From positions 2,048,001-2,112,000 of the forward strand of contig OZ242326.1 of the NCBI GenBank assembly GCA_965208325.1: 64,000 bases of DNA, written 5' to 3'. The position numbers and the translations under genes are program-made. Under the pieces are notes generated by a model. The model was not told the DNA's origin, searched no databases, and saw nothing but the letters and a program-made list of their open reading frames with translations. Positions 9,889 through 18,516 of this stretch are shown piece by piece. This DNA comes from Candidatus Poribacteria bacterium. Lineage in GTDB: Bacteria > Poribacteria > WGA-4E > PCPOR2b. Each line of letters opens with the position of its first letter. Position 1 is the stretch's first letter.

Positions 9889-12540
9889 TCAATTTAGCTG
9901 ATTGGCGACAATGTTTACGACAGCATCAATCGCGCATTGCATCTTGTCGGGATCCTTGCTGCCGCCTTGAGCAAGCTCGGGGCGCCCGCCGCCGCGTCCG
10001 TCAGCTATACGGGTGACTGCCTGAACAATTTTACCGGCTTGCAAGCCGCGGCCTTTTACGAGATCGGGAGTAACACCTGTTATGAATGCAACTTCGTTTC
10101 CAGTTGCCGAAGCGAGGACAATAACGCCTGATTCAAGGCGGTTTTTCAACTCGTCGGCGAGCCGGCGCAGCCCGTCCCGATCCATACGATCCACCACGGA
10201 AGCCACGACGCGGAAACCATCCACGACAACGGCTCGATTCGCGAGATCGACGACACTGGATTTTGCGAGTTTTGCCTGCAGTTCGTTAATCTGTTGTTCA
10301 AGTTCTCGATTGGCTTGCACCAATCTTTCCACCTGTTCCGGCGTACGATGCTTAGGGGTTTTGAGTATACTTCCGATGGAGGAAAGCAAGTCATCTTCCG
10401 AACAGACATGTTGATAGGCTGCACTTCCGGTAACGGCTTCAATTCGACGGGTACCGGCGGCGATGCTGCTTTCGCTCAAAATTTTGACAAGGCCTATTTC
10501 GCCAGTCGCACGAGTGTGCGTACCGCCGCAGAGCTCCATGCTGTAGCCGCCAATCTCGACCACGCGCACGACGTCGCCGTATTTATCGCCGAAGAACGCG
10601 AGTGCTCCCTTATCCTTGGCTGTTTGCAGGGACATGGAGTCAATTTCAACTTCGTCATTCATACGAACACAGTGGTTAATGAAGCCTTCAATCTCGCGGA
10701 GTTGATTATCCGTCACGGACTGAAAGTGCGCGAAGTCGAATCGCAACCGTCCCGGCTCAACAAGTGATCCCGCTTGACTGACATGCTTTCCGAGCTCCTT
10801 GCGCAACGCGCTGTGCAGCATGTGAGTTGCCGTGTGGCTCGCCGCGATGTGCGCTCGCCGGACCGCATCAATCTGCGATGTGACGGGCGTCTGCGGGGTA
10901 ATTTCTCCTTCGATAACCTTACACTTGTGAACAATCAGATCGGGGTTCGGTTTGAAAGTATCAACGACGTTTAGCCTCGCATTTTCACTCTCGATTGTTC
11001 CGATGTCACCGACTTGACCTCCCGATTCCGCATAAAACGGCGTGCGGTTGAGGATGGCAGCAACTTCTTCACCTTCGTGGATTCCCGATACCTGTTCATT
11101 ACCTCGAATTAATGCGATGACCTCTGCCTCCGCCTCCCCCGTATCATACCCCAAAAATTCGGTTTTCTCATATTCCTTAAGAATTTCTAAATAAACCTCT
11201 TCGCCCTTCCCGCTGCCGCCAGCGGCTTTCCAAGCGGCGCGGCTGCGCTCTTGCTGTGTAGCCATACTAGCGGCGAAGCCTTTTTCGTCGACTGACAGTC
11301 CACGCTCACGAGCCAAAATCCCGGTGAGGTCAAGCGGAAATCCAAAGGTATCGTAGAGTTCAAAAGCGCGTTCACCGGGGACGACAGATTGTTGCTGCGC
11401 GTGGAGTTCATCAAGTGATTTTCCAAGGATTTCCAATCCCCGATCAAGTGTTTGATGGAATCGCCCTTCTTCTCCCTGAATAATCTGCTTCACAAACTCC
11501 CGACGCGGGACGACATCAGCGTAAACCGAGCCGAGCAGTTCGATGACTTTGTCCACGAGCCGAAAAATGAAAGGGACATCCATCCCTAACCGTTTTCCAT
11601 AAAGGACGGCTCGGCGCAAAATTCGCCGTATTACATAGCCGCGCCCTTCGTTAGAGGGCATCACGCCGTCACCGATAGCAAACGTCAGGCAGCGCACGTG
11701 GTCGGCAATGACGCGGTGGGCAACACCGGAAATGTCCTCCGAATACGCGCTATCCGTAATATCGGCGATAGCATCAATCAAGGGGGTGAACACATCGGTT
11801 TTGTAGTTTGAATCGACGCCCTGCAAGATTGCAACCGCGCGTTCAAAGCCCATACCCGTATCAACGTGTTTTTCTGGCAACGGATACAATTTTCCCGCAG
11901 CGTCTCGGTTATACTGTATGAATACGAGATTCCACAGTTCGCGGTACCGATCGCATTTATTGACACCACATTCGTGCGCAGGGTCTTGGGTTGAACATGC
12001 CTCAGGGCCGAGATCTATGTGTACTTCTGAACAGGGGCCGCATGGACCGGTATCCCCCATTTCCCAGAAATTGTCTTTGTCGAATCTTATTACTTGGCTG
12101 GCTGGAACATCGGTTACTGTCGTCCACAGCTTTTCGGCTTCATCGTCATCCAAATGAACCGTTGCCCACAATCGATTTTTCGGAATCTTCCAGATTTCCG
12201 TAACCAACTCCCAAGCAAATTCGATAGCTTCGTGTTTGTAGTAATCTCCAAAGGACCAGTTGCCCAGCATTTCAAAAAAGGTATGATGTCCACCGGAATA
12301 GCCGACCTCTTCTAAATCGTTATGTTTACCGCTGACGCGAATACACTTCTGAGAATCAGCCGCACGTTTATATTCGCGCTGCCCCACGCCCAAGAACACA
12401 TCTTTAAACTGGTTCATACCAGCGTTTGTAAACAGCAGGGTCGGATCTTCCGCAGGCACTACCGGTGCGCTGGGAACGATAGTATGACCGCGCTCCCGGA
12501 AAAAATCCAAAAAACTCGATCGAATTTCATTGGATGTCAT
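9889..12540 (-). CDS. alaS: Alanine--tRNA ligase
   Basis: DPTLLFTNAGMNQFK, HHTFFEMLGNWSFGDY, HTATH, ELCGGTH, GGGRP.LAQGG. Confidence 0.99.
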   Translation of the reverse strand: MTSNEIRSSFLDFFRERGHTIVPSAPVVPAEDPTLLFTNAGMNQFKDVFLGVGQREYKRAADSQKCIRVSGKHNDLEEVGYSGGHHTFFEMLGNWSFGDYYKHEAIEFAWELVTEIWKIPKNRLWATVHLDDDEAEKLWTTVTDVPASQVIRFDKDNFWEMGDTGPCGPCSEVHIDLGPEACSTQDPAHECGVNKCDRYRELWNLVFIQYNRDAAGKLYPLPEKHVDTGMGFERAVAILQGVDSNYKTDVFTPLIDAIADITDSAYSEDISGVAHRVIADHVRCLTFAIGDGVMPSNEGRGYVIRRILRRAVLYGKRLGMDVPFIFRLVDKVIELLGSVYADVVPRREFVKQIIQGEEGRFHQTLDRGLEILGKSLDELHAQQQSVVPGERAFELYDTFGFPLDLTGILARERGLSVDEKGFAASMATQQERSRAAWKAAGGSGKGEEVYLEILKEYEKTEFLGYDTGEAEAEVIALIRGNEQVSGIHEGEEVAAILNRTPFYAESGGQVGDIGTIESENARLNVVDTFKPNPDLIVHKCKVIEGEITPQTPVTSQIDAVRRAHIAASHTATHMLHSALRKELGKHVSQAGSLVEPGRLRFDFAHFQSVTDNQLREIEGFINHCVRMNDEVEIDSMSLQTAKDKGALAFFGDKYGDVVRVVEIGGYSMELCGGTHTRATGEIGLVKILSESSIAAGTRRIEAVTGSAAYQHVCSEDDLLSSIGSILKTPKHRTPEQVERLVQANRELEQQINELQAKLAKSSVVDLANRAVVVDGFRVVASVVDRMDRDGLRRLADELKNRLESGVIVLASATGNEVAFITGVTPDLVKGRGLQAGKIVQAVTRIADGRGGGRPELAQGGSKDPDKMQCAIDAVVNIVANQLN

Positions 12541-13453: not shown

Positions 13454-15586
13454 TTATTCTTGCAGGGGTGTCAACATTGCGGCGATGTCCGCCGGCAGAT
13501 TCACGCCATGTCTCGCCTCGAAGTCCGAAACGCTTGCGTAGTCGTTATGAAAGCCAGCGATGATATTTACACCCATGTCCCTAGCAATGTTCAAATCCTC
13601 TCGGGCTTTTTCCCATTCTCTCAGTCGCAACCACACTTCACCGCGATTATAATAGGCGGCGATAAAGACCGGCTTTAATTCTATCGCTTTGTTATAATTT
13701 TCAAGCGCACGGTCAACCTCGCCTTTGCTATAATGAGCCACTCCGCGATTGTTATAAACAATGGAAAGCCGCGGATTGAGTTCTATTACTTTGTTAAAGT
13801 CAACAATGGCACGGTCATATTCGCCAACGGTGATATAGGCATTGCCCCGACCATTATAGGCTTCGACAAGATTTGGTTCGAGCTGTATCGCCTTGTCAAA
13901 GTCGGCGATGGCCCGGACACAATCACCTTTGTTGCGGTATGCGGCACCGCGATTGCTATAAGGCTCGGCGTAATCGGGTTTGAGTTCTATCGCACGATTA
14001 CAGTCTACAATGGCAAGGTCAAAATCCCCCTTTCCCCGATAGACAGCACCGCGATTGTTGTAGGCTATGGCGTAATCGGTTTTGAGTTCTATAGCATGGT
14101 TAAAGTCTTTAAGGGCAAGGTTAACCTGATCTTTTTTGCCGTAAGTGATACCACGGCTGTTGTATGCCTCGGCAAATTTCGGTTTCAGTAGTATTGCCAT
14201 GTTAAAGTCTTCAGTGGCACGGTCAAAATCGCCCTGCTGGTCGTAAGCGATACCGCGATTGATATAAGCTTCAGCAAGGTTGGTATTGAGTTCTATGGCT
14301 TTGTTCAATTCTAACATGGCACGGTCATGGTCGCCTATCATGCCGTAAACAACCCCGCGATTACTATATGCTATGGCAAAATCGGGATTCAGCTCTATCG
14401 CTTTATTGAAGTCGTTGAGAGCAAATTGAACATTGCCTTTGTTCTTAAAAGTAACGCCGCGATTGTAGTAGGCGTTCGCATAACCGGGGTTGAGTTGAAT
14501 TGCTTTATCAAAGTCTTTGAGAGCACGATCAAAATCCTCTTTGTCATGATAAGCCCCCCCACGATTATTATATAGCTCGGCGAGGTTTGGTTTCAATTGT
14601 ATTGCCTTGTTAAAGTCTGCAATAGCACAATTATGCTCTCCCTTGCTACTAAAAACGTTACCACGATTGTTGTAGGCATTGGTACAATTGGGATTGAGTT
14701 CTATTGCCCTGTTATAATCTTCAATAGCACGGTCAACCTCGTCTCTCCTGTAGAAAACCTCGCCGCGATAGTTATAAGCATCGGCATAATCCGGTTTCAA
14801 TTCTATCGCTTTGGTAAAATCTGAGATGGCATGTTCAAATCTACCCTGTCTGTTGTAAGCCAGACCGCGATTAAAACAAGCATCGGCATCATCGGGATTT
14901 AATTGTACCGCTGTATTAAAATCTTTGATGGCGCAGTCATAGTCCCCCTTGCTGCTGTAAGCAATGCCACGATTGTTGTAGGAGTCAACCTGCAGCGAAT
15001 TTAACTTTAACGCTTTGGTATAATGCTCAATGGCTTTTTCATAATCTTCTCTATTTTGGCACGTCAGCCCTTCAAGGAACTCCGTGTAAGCCCTTTGATA
15101 AGTATCTTGATTACTAATAAACTCATGAAGGTCGTAATAGATAGTTGGATTAGATATGTCGTGGTACTTTTGGAGGTGGTTCAACATGAGCTTCCTGAGG
15201 CTTTTGGGAATATCGACTACACGGTACTGTTCCTGTTGAATAAGCCTCTCAGGCAGTCTAACAAATACCCGCTTTTGAACGTTGGCGCGACGCATTGGAT
15301 TTCGATCGAATTCAATCCGGTCACTTATCGCGTCGGTTTTTTTCAGTAGGATAACCCTGCCGGATTTTTCAAGCGAACCGCTACAGGCGAAGAAGAGAGC
15401 TATCAGGTAATCGGTCGTGAATTCTATAACGTTCGCTGTCTTAACCTCATCCTCACGGTAGAGGGTTGACGAGACTCCCTCATAGTATTCTGACTCACCA
15501 CGGTAAATGTAGTCGCCATCGGCTGATTTTTCCTCTATCTCGCGTAATTTTTCCCTAATCTTGCTTCGATTGTTTTTTGTGCTCAT
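13454..15586 (-). CDS. FRG-like domain plus about 15 TPR repeats
   Basis: YIYRGE, SSTLYR and IEFTTDYLIALFFAC (FRG-like); repeated 34-aa AYxNRG...AI.L.P units. Confidence 0.85.
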   Translation of the reverse strand: MSTKNNRSKIREKLREIEEKSADGDYIYRGESEYYEGVSSTLYREDEVKTANVIEFTTDYLIALFFACSGSLEKSGRVILLKKTDAISDRIEFDRNPMRRANVQKRVFVRLPERLIQQEQYRVVDIPKSLRKLMLNHLQKYHDISNPTIYYDLHEFISNQDTYQRAYTEFLEGLTCQNREDYEKAIEHYTKALKLNSLQVDSYNNRGIAYSSKGDYDCAIKDFNTAVQLNPDDADACFNRGLAYNRQGRFEHAISDFTKAIELKPDYADAYNYRGEVFYRRDEVDRAIEDYNRAIELNPNCTNAYNNRGNVFSSKGEHNCAIADFNKAIQLKPNLAELYNNRGGAYHDKEDFDRALKDFDKAIQLNPGYANAYYNRGVTFKNKGNVQFALNDFNKAIELNPDFAIAYSNRGVVYGMIGDHDRAMLELNKAIELNTNLAEAYINRGIAYDQQGDFDRATEDFNMAILLKPKFAEAYNSRGITYGKKDQVNLALKDFNHAIELKTDYAIAYNNRGAVYRGKGDFDLAIVDCNRAIELKPDYAEPYSNRGAAYRNKGDCVRAIADFDKAIQLEPNLVEAYNGRGNAYITVGEYDRAIVDFNKVIELNPRLSIVYNNRGVAHYSKGEVDRALENYNKAIELKPVFIAAYYNRGEVWLRLREWEKAREDLNIARDMGVNIIAGFHNDYASVSDFEARHGVNLPADIAAMLTPLQE

Positions 15587-15811: not shown

Positions 15812-16240
15812 TCAATCAATCAATTCATCATTTTCCCCATCCCCGACAATGGCCATCGCAGACTGTACTGGAATAAATTTTGACCGTAGTGCGAGCTCAG
15901 TTGCCAGAAATTGCATGTCTTCCCGTTTGTCTGGCCACGGTACAATGTCTGCATGTAAGTGGTGTATGGAAGTTTCTGGCTCAACCCTTTGGTCTAGCGC
16001 GTAAACGTCTCGCGCCAAAATGTCCGCTCGACCATAAAGGCGCTCACCTTGCGGTCTAGCGACAAATTGGTTACCAATTGACCAAATTTCGTCTTCACTA
16101 AGCGTTGAAGTAAGGTAAACGGACAAGCGTTTGCTTTTCGGGGGCATAAATGCCCTAAACTTAACTCTCTGATCGGAAGGACGAACCTCATTTTTTCGCA
16201 TAATGAAATGGCTGAGTCTTTCATTTGGACTAATAACCAT
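15812..16240 (-). CDS. Hypothetical protein (possible ADP-ribosyltransferase-like toxin fold)
   Basis: 142-aa ORF overlapping the upstream gene by 11 bp; AFMP..LSV...LYGRADI...HADI pattern. Confidence 0.6.
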   Translation of the reverse strand: MVISPNERLSHFIMRKNEVRPSDQRVKFRAFMPPKSKRLSVYLTSTLSEDEIWSIGNQFVARPQGERLYGRADILARDVYALDQRVEPETSIHHLHADIVPWPDKREDMQFLATELALRSKFIPVQSAMAIVGDGENDELID

Positions 16241-16826
16241 AATAGGGATAGAGATTCGTAATCATGCCAAAAATGGCGAAAAGATGCGGAGTTGAGAAGG
16301 TGAATATACCACGGGCTTGACTCTCTTCGCTGAAGATTCCCGCGAATACAATATGTCCATCGCCACCAAAACTCAAGGTGAATATCTTCTGTCCTTCCCG
16401 CCATTCTATGCCAATTTCACCGTTATCCAAAGGCATAATATCAGCTAGAGATGCAATTCGACCGAGTGTACCGTCGTGAGATTTGTGGAGTGTTTTTAGA
16501 AACCTTTCCACGTCTTGGTATGCGCCCTCTGGGATACCGTCTAGCTCTGGGTCAAGTCTTCTTTCTTCTTCTGCCTCCGCTCGTACCTTTTGCAGTGTCT
16601 TCTCAATCTGTTTTGGGTCGAAGTCATACAGCTTGGTTTGACTGAGTTCGCCGAAGTCTGTGTGAATAGTGCTTCCTTTTTGCACAGGCGTTCTTAGCCT
16701 CATCTGCTCGCCAATTGAATCGGATGTCCAAAAGCCCGGTTTCTTGTCAAAACCGAGCGCGTTCAAATCATTCGCGTTTTGCATGAGAGTTGTGGGCTGA
16801 TTTTCAGCAGCTACTAGCTGACTCAT
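16230..16826 (-). CDS. Hypothetical protein
   Basis: 198-aa ORF with GGAGGG RBS; low-complexity N-half and compact C-half (IMPLDNGEIGIEW...LSFGGDG). Confidence 0.7.
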   Translation of the reverse strand: MSQLVAAENQPTTLMQNANDLNALGFDKKPGFWTSDSIGEQMRLRTPVQKGSTIHTDFGELSQTKLYDFDPKQIEKTLQKVRAEAEEERRLDPELDGIPEGAYQDVERFLKTLHKSHDGTLGRIASLADIMPLDNGEIGIEWREGQKIFTLSFGGDGHIVFAGIFSEESQARGIFTFSTPHLFAIFGMITNLYPYYGY

Positions 16827-16972: not shown

Positions 16973-17371
16973 TTAATCTGCACCATCCTCGTTCGTTGGC
17001 TGCTCCAGCAATGATTGCAGAAGGTCGGCGATTACCTCAATATCGGTAATTGATCCATTGGCAATCTTTACGCCAAGTTCAACAATTGAATCATCAATGC
17101 CAAGACGAAGGGAACATCCATTCAAAACCAAAAACCAAAGCGCACAAGTCATGCCGGTACGCTTGTTCCCATCTAAAAATATATGTCCTGTGATAATGTG
17201 ATGGGCATATACAGCGGCTTTTTGAATCAAAGTCGGAAACAGTTCTGTGTTGCCGAATTTTTGACAGACGATTTCTACCATATACTGTAACTGGTTTTCC
17301 TTTAGCAACTCATTGTTTGCCACATGGCGCTTGGCAACCCGCAGAATCTCGTCAATTGCCAAATATCTCAA
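16973..17371 (-). CDS. doc: Doc (death-on-curing) family Fic-domain toxin
   Basis: HIFLDGNKRTG Doc-type motif and KAAVYAHHI; likely TTG start (MRYL) overlapping the upstream TGA (alternative ATG at 17392). Confidence 0.9.
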   Translation of the reverse strand: MRYLAIDEILRVAKRHVANNELLKENQLQYMVEIVCQKFGNTELFPTLIQKAAVYAHHIITGHIFLDGNKRTGMTCALWFLVLNGCSLRLGIDDSIVELGVKIANGSITDIEVIADLLQSLLEQPTNEDGAD

Positions 17372-18516
17372 AGTTTTGCCAGGGTTTTCCATGCTCGATC
17401 GTAGTTTTCTAAGATTCCCTCTAAGACGATTTCTGCATCATTATTCTCCGGAGAAGCCGTGTTCTGTGCTTTCTCTTTTTCCGTAGCAGTTACTTCAGGT
17501 ATCAGTATTGCGACGATGTCGTTAGGTAGATTCACACCGTTTTTCTGTTTGAAGTCTACAACGCTTGGATATGAACGATGAAATGAGGCAATGATATCTA
17601 TCCCCATATTCTTGGCGGTTGCCAAGTCTGACTTGGCTTCCTTCCATTCTCCCAAGTGTAACAACATGTAGCCACGATGATAGTGCGCTATGGCATCATA
17701 AGGTTTCAGGATTATTCCTTTGGTAAAATCCTCAATAGCGAGGTCATATTTGCCTCTTTCCCCGTATGCCATACCGCGATTGTTATAGATTCGGACCTCG
17801 TTGGTCTTGTATTCTATAGCTTTAGTGAAATCTTTGATGGCGCAGTCAATATCCCCTTTTCTGGCGTAAGCTGCACCACGATTGTTATATGCCTCGGCAT
17901 CATCAGGTTTCAGTTTTATCACTTGACCGAAATCTTTGATGGCACGGTCGACATCACCCTTTTGTCCGTACGCTAGACCTCGATTGTAATAGGTATTGGC
18001 ATTATCAGGTTTCAGTCGAATTGCTGTGTTAAAATCTTCGATAGCATGTTCAACATCGCCTTTAATGTTGTAGGCAACACCGCGATTATTATGAACATCG
18101 GCATTATCGGGTTTCAGTTGTATTACTTTGGTGAAGTCTTTGATAGCGTGTTCAACATCGCCTTGTTGACCGTATGCTAGGCCGCGATTATAATAGGCGT
18201 GGTCATAATTGGACCACAGGTCTATCGCTTTGCTGAAATCTTCAATTGCTCTATCAATATCGCCTTTTTCACCGTGAGCGACGCCGCGATTGTTATAGGC
18301 TTTGGCGTCATTGGGATTGAGCGTTATCGCTCCGGTACAGTGTTCGATTTCACGGTCAATCTCACCCAATCGGCCAGAATCAATTTGGCACATGCGATGT
18401 TCCTCAACGCCGTCTAACGTTGAGGTTACTTTTTTGATGCCACCCTTAATATTCCTATCGGGTCTTCCCACGTAATGGTAGTCAAAACCGGCAGACGTTA
18501 AGTTCAGTTGAGGCAT
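17368..18516 (-). CDS. TPR protein (about 7 repeats) with C-terminal helix resembling a Doc-partner antitoxin
   Basis: AYNNRG TPR units; ends ...AEIVLEGILENYDRAWKTLAKL*; GAGGAG RBS. Confidence 0.8.
   Translation of the reverse strand: MPQLNLTSAGFDYHYVGRPDRNIKGGIKKVTSTLDGVEEHRMCQIDSGRLGEIDREIEHCTGAITLNPNDAKAYNNRGVAHGEKGDIDRAIEDFSKAIDLWSNYDHAYYNRGLAYGQQGDVEHAIKDFTKVIQLKPDNADVHNNRGVAYNIKGDVEHAIEDFNTAIRLKPDNANTYYNRGLAYGQKGDVDRAIKDFGQVIKLKPDDAEAYNNRGAAYARKGDIDCAIKDFTKAIEYKTNEVRIYNNRGMAYGERGKYDLAIEDFTKGIILKPYDAIAHYHRGYMLLHLGEWKEAKSDLATAKNMGIDIIASFHRSYPSVVDFKQKNGVNLPNDIVAILIPEVTATEKEKAQNTASPENNDAEIVLEGILENYDRAWKTLAKL

Follow-up and report, generated by a model that had tools for sequence, protein, structure and literature searches.

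A Doc toxin gene in a Poribacterial genome is probably paired with a TPR protein whose C-terminal helix resembles the Phd-C element of Doc antitoxins

What keeps in check the Doc toxin encoded in the 64,000-nucleotide stretch analysed here (Candidatus Poribacteria bacterium, contig OZ242326.1, positions 2,048,001 to 2,112,000; hereafter the window)? On the minus strand, an open reading frame (ORF) encoding a 382-residue tetratricopeptide repeat (TPR) protein (18516..17368 in the ORF list) is followed by the overlapping ORF of a 139-residue Doc protein (17392..16973), and both ORFs are intact. A preliminary description of this DNA, made from the sequence alone, had claimed that doc is preceded by no small antitoxin gene and is instead coupled to the TPR protein, which ends in a helix resembling those of Doc antitoxins. 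Both minus-strand genes are confirmed and, upstream of doc on the same strand, the ORF list gives no other ORF of at least 40 residues, save one of 41 residues nested within the TPR gene. The adjoining genes are co-oriented, the putative antitoxin comes first and they overlap whichever start codon doc uses, which is the layout of type II toxin-antitoxin systems. We consider it likely that they form a Doc toxin-antitoxin pair, in which the antitoxin is a Phd-C-like helix borne by a TPR carrier devoid of a DNA-binding domain.

Doc-type enzymes share the catalytic motif HxFx(D/N)(A/G)NKR. The window Doc carries it as HIFLDGNKR, in agreement with the preliminary description, and six of its residues (H70, F72, G75, N76, K77, and R78) are invariant across 26 relatives. 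The protein scores above the cutoffs of both TIGR01550 (DOC_P1; 48.8 bits, cutoff 38.65) and the Pfam Fic family PF02661 (41.9 bits, cutoff 24), and Doc chains in the PDB match it at E-values ranging from 5.8e-7 (9vzc_A) to 2.1e-4 (1.6e-5 for 3k33_A). It is a Fic-fold enzyme and, by analogy with Doc of phage P1, is presumed to be a kinase inactivating EF-Tu.

As for the partner, Pfam and NCBIfam detect no DNA-binding domain in it, whether of the Phd/YefM, AbrB or another type. Phd/YefM (PF02604) was found neither in the whole protein (best 25 of 31 families, all of them repeats or chance matches) nor in its first 80, last 61 or last 30 residues, and Pfam found no Panacea domain (PF13274) in it, while both families were detected in positive controls (PF02604 in L141, L142, and L149; PF13274 in L121 and L128). 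The protein ends in ...NNDAEIVLEGILENYDRAWKTLAKL*. AlphaFold2 predicts a TPR solenoid (residues ~50-303) and a short helical end segment (308-338), then a terminal helix (361-381) which is undocked, of low confidence, and located behind a linker with a low predicted local distance difference test score (pLDDT; residues 342-365). A free, low-confidence helix on a disordered linker is as expected for an element that folds upon its partner. This tail comprises 22 residues and occupies, with the stop codon, positions 17368-17436, instead of 17368-17445 as first proposed. The claim that a TPR array stands in place of the DNA-binding domain of an antitoxin holds in that the partner lacks such a domain and that conservation centres on its final ~22 residues.

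The conservation of the tail was assessed in two sets of loci, which overlap in genomes, are hence not independent, and amount to ~110 loci in all. The first consists of 61 related genomes, including that of the window, searched for Doc with a cutoff of E up to 1e-10: 29 of them have Doc, and the upstream ORF ends in the tail at all 30 loci. In 29 aligned tails, the Y, W, and L positions are invariant and the A position is at least 90% conserved, yielding the signature Y..AWK.L. The second set derives from a species-wide scan (one genome per species) which returned 375 Doc relatives, the results reported here being those of the best 80. The tail is found at all 80 loci, with the strict pattern in 74, H in place of Y in five, and one case (L118) in which it lies in the same frame as Doc with a stop codon in between. 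According to record titles, 76 of these 80 loci belong to Poribacteria, three to "uncultured bacterium", and one to Vicinamibacterales; thus, this Doc lineage has so far been found almost only in Poribacteria-type genomes. The search for further TPR-helix-doc loci suggested in the preliminary description has thereby yielded a tail at every locus inspected.

Within the 4.7-Mb genome of the window itself, the tail profile matches just two loci, both of them Doc loci (E = 5.7e-15 and 8.9e-12; next match, 0.25). The second Doc is 65% identical to the first, and the gene overlapping it upstream encodes a 210-residue TIR_2 protein (1.7e-14) ending in ...EEIVNNYKPAWKVLSNF*. (At this second locus, L002 1492-2492, outside the window, the next gene upstream encodes a DUF5131 protein, 9.1e-69.) Eight proteins of the genome contain the TPR end segment, and the window protein is the only one of them that bears the tail. 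For example, the neighbouring paralogue at 13454..15586 matches the window protein over residues 48-340 and ends at that point, without a tail. This tail-less paralogue, the existence of at least six kinds of N-terminal part, and the predicted disordered linker all indicate that the tail was appended at the C-terminus and is, in its architecture, distinct from the folded domain. As the tail is kept in every related locus examined and the profile matches in the window's own genome are limited to the two Doc loci, its presence at Doc loci is more than chance.

Searches with the tail itself were of uneven reach. Pfam found no family at E up to 10 in the last 61 or 30 residues. A protein-homologue search with residues 340-382 gave two matches among nine candidates, both FRG-TPR proteins, with a word index too coarse for such a short region. 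The tail profile, when run against representative proteins, matched 27 clusters at E up to 1e-3, a lower bound given that large TPR proteins may hide in tail-less clusters. Two giant proteins, P0002 (1993 residues) and P0018 (1609 residues), show partial matches to the profile in 10 and 8 stretches, respectively, which probably reflect an unrelated internal repeat.

These distributions bear on the suspicion that the arrangement is an accident of one genome, be it an assembly error, a chance deletion of recent date or a pseudogene in decay. A metagenome contig from a separate study is collinear with positions 17154-17959, that is, across Doc, the tail, and the TPR part, which rules out misassembly. 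In addition, the same N-terminus and architecture recur in P0025 (270 residues), L014/L049 (450 residues), and L038/L083 (584 residues), and both window ORFs are open throughout. The fusion is thus not unique to this genome, as it is also found among related genomes, in the species-wide scan, and on an independently obtained contig. Decayed relatives do exist and provide what can be said for an accident: in P0013 and P0019, Doc is deleted and the tail continues, in frame, into the C-terminal half of a homologue of ORF198, an ORF located downstream of Doc in the window, while in L029, L030, and several other loci Doc is broken or truncated, with stops inside the match, next to a tail-bearing partner ORF that is still open. 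Taken together, we regard an artefact or accident as very improbable. The broken Doc copies beside open partners suggest that the toxin decays first. As a separate observation, the tail ORF in L010 / L045 ends 76 nucleotides before Doc, and between them lie degenerate duplicates of a tail end and a Doc N-terminus, which look like the scar of a duplication or recombination. A similar start motif, M-P/Q-x-LNL....DY.Y, precedes the first repeat in many of the long TPR proteins that bear the tail, namely in the window protein (18460-18516, minus strand) and in L051, L056, L059, L073, L117, and L038.

Does the tail bind Doc? Modelling a complex of Doc with the C-terminal ~30 residues of its partner, a check suggested in the preliminary description, was carried out with the last 33 residues (alignment of 29 sequences), Doc (alignment of 26), and three controls. 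The interaction prediction score from aligned errors (ipSAE) reached 0.87, 0.86, and 0.88, against 0.02 for the best control; the mark used for this score is reached by 116 of 157 solved complexes and by 2 of 215 mismatched pairs. At least 98% of the contacts agree among runs, and the pLDDT of the partner is at least 77. In the model, the contacting positions of the tail (33-mer numbering) are D11, A12, V15, L16, I19, L20, N22, Y23, R25, A26, W27, T29, L30, A31, and L33, and those of Doc are residues 75, 77-78, 81-82, 85-86, and 89-90, the 95-108 region, and the N-terminal helix. The tail is thus predicted to lie over the catalytic motif (K77/R78), on the active-site face of Doc, and the model supports binding.

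A predicted contact could also be that of a dock. TPR domains are generic peptide-binding adaptors, and Doc might be a recruited modifying enzyme instead of a toxin, with the tail docking it onto TPR, TIR or FRG scaffolds, either to modify clients bound in the TPR groove or to regulate the scaffold. The strict co-occurrence of tail and Doc (two out of two in the window's own genome) would suit such an arrangement, as would the different chemistries that Fic/Doc enzymes perform according to PMC10440598. The predicted interface covers K77/R78, however, as would be expected for an inhibitor and not for a docking site that leaves the enzyme active. Moreover, the same tail is carried by 69-residue proteins without any adaptor domain, and gene order and overlap follow the type II toxin-antitoxin pattern. 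A recruited enzyme is therefore improbable in our view.

The tail may be related to the Phd-C element of the antitoxin Phd. The comparison of the tail with PDB sequences, by phmmer and with a profile, returned only chance matches (E of at least 0.5), and it was thus compared with the antitoxins of distant natural Doc loci, located on viral contigs. These contigs contain only distant Doc relatives and none of the window lineage; identity reaches at most 57%, in alignments that are partial or very short, and is 41% in the top-scoring match. The antitoxins encoded upstream of these Docs belong to Phd/YefM (PF02604; L141, L142, and L149) or Panacea (PF13274; L121 and L128), or in several cases to no family, and end in a related pattern, ...I..EH...L.ALKDR. 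When Poribacterial and viral-contig tails were aligned with hhalign, their last 18 columns fell in register (P = 0.0019, probability 14%), a match which is weak but consistent with kinship to Phd-type antitoxins. The five Poribacterial tails with H in place of Y are also consistent with kinship to the EH-type tails. As part of the reading taken as a whole, the tail helix is likely to be a relative or an analogue of the Phd-C element.

The degree of gene overlap depends on the start codon of doc. The TGA stop of the TPR gene (17370-17368) is preceded by a T, forming a TTGA in which the TTG at 17371 may initiate a protein beginning with MRYL; an open ATG is also present 21 nucleotides upstream, at 17392. 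The overlap is accordingly 4 nucleotides with TTG or 25 with ATG. Among the best 80 loci, 23 have no open upstream ATG and must start at the MRYL codon (22 with ATG, in an ATGA overlap, and one with TTG), 27 have a non-start codon at this position and must use the ATG located 21 nucleotides upstream, and the remaining 30, to which the window belongs, permit both. An in-frame stop separates the upstream ATG from the MRYL codon in 20 loci, and in 67 of the 80 the tail ends at an identical point, its stop lying one base inside the position-8 codon. As the codons of the tail's conserved Ala-Trp pair create the upstream ATG, its conservation alone tells little. The TTGA start favoured initially is thus a real option, one whose position 23 loci are bound to use, although the window retains the open ATG as well.

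We propose that the two genes constitute a Doc module in which the last ~22 residues of the upstream product would hold Doc inactive. The amphipathic helix, carried by the disordered linker, would fold onto the active-site face of Doc (K77/R78 and the following helices). The TPR scaffold would most likely serve to keep this short helix stable and in dosage match with Doc, such a match being expected because the genes overlap by 25 or 4 nucleotides. Autoregulation through binding of the antitoxin to DNA would probably be absent.

A second feature of these loci is the diversity of what precedes the tail. Partners were assigned to classes by BLAST to reference segments and by length, with Pfam run on representatives only. 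So classified, the 80 partners comprise 52 mini-TPR proteins, 12 longer TPR, six TIR-TPR, three FRG-TPR, three 69-residue helical proteins without family, two with the window-type N-terminus and TPR, and two with TIR only. The commonest form, the mini-TPR (<170 residues, about 98-165, with one to three repeats), passes Pfam TPR cutoffs in three representatives. Junctions also differ by group, as the tail follows the end segment and acidic linker in some, comes directly after the capping helix in others, or succeeds a TIR domain. In L038, one protein joins a TPR array to an entire small helical antitoxin, with the tail behind it. The seven partner classes require at least 21 changes on a Doc tree of 82 rows (possible minimum, 6; shuffled mean, 28.9), a rough figure given the weak resolution of the tree, in which 8 of 77 inner branches are starred. 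For example, the near-identical Docs of L092 and L095 are accompanied by a 457-residue TPR protein (665 residues if counted from the earliest start codon, whatever its type) and a 1052-residue TIR-TPR protein. Similarly, one well-supported clade (96) mixes partners of 69, 322, and 591 residues. We infer that Doc and the tail form a conserved core and that the N-terminal part of the partner is often exchanged. Exchange probably occurs by recombination between near-consensus TPR repeats, which in TPR-rich genomes can readily lengthen or shorten an array, or combine it with TPR proteins headed by TIR or FRG.

Such rapid turnover may have another meaning. The TPR array (with its TIR or FRG heads in relatives) might bind a trigger, for instance a phage protein, whereupon Doc would be released or allosterically activated and cause an abortive growth arrest; binding, oligomerisation or proteolysis could free Doc, and TIR forms would also switch on an effector directed at nicotinamide adenine dinucleotide (NAD). 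That the TPR array may act as a ligand sensor or as a proteolysis switch was already put forward as a hypothesis in the preliminary description. Several observations lean towards a role in defence: Doc matches the PADLOC candidate models PDC-S23 (4.4e-14) and PDC-M59B (PDC-M59: 3.7e-6); in relatives, TIR heads match ThsB (4.2e-23) and PDC-S66, and FRG heads match PDC-S15; N-terminal parts turn over fast relative to Doc and tail, as the tree and the L092/L095 pair illustrate; and the locus sits in an islet of ~5 kb between alaS and the PhyH/rpsB-tsf genes. A sensory role has been proposed for an analogous accessory domain in PMC10440598.

Yet 52 of the 80 partners are mini-TPR proteins of one to three repeats and three are 69-residue helical proteins without TPR; with partners this small in most cases, the module does not require a large sensor. 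Repeat-mediated recombination can explain the turnover without selection, the PADLOC families matched are candidates and not validated ones, the partners match generic TPR models only, and viral contigs hold no close relative. In PADLOC-DB 2.0, no system has all of its components matched, Doc alone hitting candidate models. We view a sensor or a defence function as possible but doubtful, and the long arrays as better explained by frequent N-terminal exchange; for TIR- and FRG-headed forms, the idea is attractive. A bolder version, which we rate as rather unlikely, is that the tail is a portable "toxin leash" wired in Poribacteria onto TPR sensors headed by TIR or FRG, thereby making two-effector immune or conflict proteins. 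If so, ligand capture by the TPR would free the Doc kinase, TIR forms would in addition activate an NAD-directed effector, and the whole would represent a sensor-coupled toxin-antitoxin defence operating without a nucleoside triphosphatase switch or a DNA-binding regulator, whose triggers could be phage proteins or, in sponge symbionts, host proteins.

Returning to the toxin-antitoxin pair that we favour, several points weigh against it. The toxicity of Doc, its EF-Tu target, and its neutralisation by the partner are all properties that we infer. The tail has no match beyond chance among PDB sequences, and the hhalign probability is just 14%. Since Phd-Doc complexes have been solved (3k33, 3dd7, and 3kh2), the high score of the complex model may reflect likeness to them and not constitute independent evidence. 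A scan for promoters and terminators gave no signal above the shuffled expectation (8 vs 6.2 +/- 2.7). Finally, a role of scaffold only leaves the recurrent TIR and FRG heads, with their matches to PADLOC candidate families, unexplained.

Features of the two genes are listed in the table. They belong to the ~5-kb islet mentioned above, which is bounded on one side by alaS (9889..12540) and on the other by a PhyH-family gene, after which come rpsB, tsf, and frr (these three named from their translations alone), and which contains, in this order, an FRG-like TPR paralogue, two ORFs without family, Doc, and the TPR-tail gene. The paralogue is the tail-less protein already described (13454..15586, minus strand, 710 residues); it lies 1.4 kb downstream of the Doc stop, and its FRG head is degenerate, matching only the last third of the profile (E = 6e-4). 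In L033 and L035, intact FRG-TPR proteins bear the tail and are located directly upstream of Doc. The two overlapping ORFs downstream of Doc, ORF198 (16230-16826, minus strand) and ORF142 (15812-16240, minus strand), were considered as third components and rejected, because they match no Pfam, NCBIfam or PADLOC family (Atlas places both in unnamed clusters) and because ORF198 adjoins Doc in only 2 of the 30 loci (the window and L014).

Table. Coordinates of the features of the Doc module in the window, with the supporting evidence.
Feature	Position	Strand	Evidence
Putative antitoxin gene, 382-residue TPR protein with predicted C-terminal Doc-binding tail	17368..18516	-	Stop 17368-17370; TPR_1 1.5e-64; NCBIfam TPR_END_plus 1.9e-31; AlphaFold2 mean pLDDT 81
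N-terminal ~48 residues, MPQLNLTSAGFDYHY..., non-TPR	18373..18516	-	pLDDT ~50
TPR array, residues ~50-303, paired helices H50 to H303, ~7-8 repeats	17608..18369	-	Pfam TPR families; pLDDT mostly >90
TPR end-of-group segment, residues 304-340, ...GVNLPNDIVAILIP	17497..17607	-	Aligns to C-terminus of tail-less paralogue 13454..15586
Polar acidic linker, residues 341-360, predicted disordered	17437..17496	-	pLDDT <50 for residues 342-365; variable among relatives
Tail helix AEIVLEGILENYDRAWKTLAKL, residues 361-382, Phd-C-like, predicted Doc-neutralising element	17371..17436	-	Conservation; complex model; profile match
Doc toxin gene, 139 residues from ATG 17392 (132 residues from alternative TTG 17371)	16973..17392	-	TIGR01550; PDB Doc chains
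Doc catalytic motif HIFLDGNKR, residues 70-78	17159..17185	-	Sequence; conservation in relatives

If the pair functions as proposed, it would provide a natural and recurrent case (~110 loci, in overlapping sets) of a Doc antitoxin that needs only a short linear helix, the remainder being freely swappable. The parts swapped in (TPR, TIR, and FRG) are of the domain kinds used by immune sensors and effectors. Sponge symbionts encode many TPR "eukaryote-like" proteins, some of which would also gain a concrete cytoplasmic role. Since the partner resembles an ordinary TPR protein, Doc genes of this type will be labelled orphan toxins by annotation pipelines. The pair is small and readily testable in E. 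coli, where it could reveal whether a repeat-protein carrier alters the regulation or triggering of a toxin-antitoxin system.

How does this locus compare with known systems? It shares with Phd-Doc (phage P1 and chromosomal; 3k33, 3dd7, and 3kh2) the Doc motif, sequence matches to solved Doc chains, and an antitoxin gene located upstream of the toxin gene and overlapping it. In both, neutralisation is attributed, for the window by prediction, to a C-terminal helix lacking order in the unbound state, and the window tail aligns in register with Phd-type C-termini from natural loci. According to PMC9207808, a C-terminal 23-mer peptide of Phd is sufficient, and a C-terminal Phd peptide is reported to bind and inhibit Doc with about the efficacy of the full-length protein. 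By contrast, the window partner lacks the Phd/YefM fold and hence has no obvious operator binding or conditional cooperativity, its carrier is a 340-residue TPR protein, and the tail has, in this lineage, its own signature (Y..AWK.L), which matches no PDB chain.

A published precedent is the PanA antitoxin, in which, as Ernits et al. 2023 (PMC10440598) report, the C-terminal helices are a Phd-C domain whose truncation abolishes Doc neutralisation; Phd-C placed on a SUMO tag neutralises Doc, and a sensory function of the accessory domain is suggested by these authors. PanA carries, like the window protein, a linear Phd-C element C-terminal to a non-DNA-binding accessory domain, which is there dispensable for neutralisation, and the natural loci L121 and L128 likewise have a SocA_Panacea domain and a related tail upstream of a distant Doc. 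In the window lineage, the accessory part is TPR instead of Panacea (TIR-TPR, FRG-TPR, TIR or small helical in relatives), and Doc itself is found almost only in Poribacteria-titled genomes. The principle of a linear Phd-C element on an accessory domain is therefore already published, and the earlier assessment of the locus as the best candidate for an undescribed system was overstated, given that such an element neutralises Doc on PanA, a non-DNA-binding accessory domain, and even on a SUMO tag. In the literature searched, mostly at abstract level, no Doc antitoxin carried by TPR, TIR or FRG is described.

Two further comparisons are looser. PDC-S23 and PDC-M59 of PADLOC resemble the window system by the Doc domain, with the E-values given above, but PDC-S23 proteins are single chains of ~312-331 residues with Doc at the C-terminus, whereas the window Doc is a separate protein of 132-139 residues, and the partners in its lineage match no PDC partner model. 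Finally, CapRel (toxSAS) is alike in concept only, as its antitoxin element is attached to a larger protein and regulated together with it; CapRel belongs to another toxin family, and toxin and antitoxin reside there in one polypeptide instead of two genes. PMC10440598 cites it as an example of activation that need not depend on dissociation.

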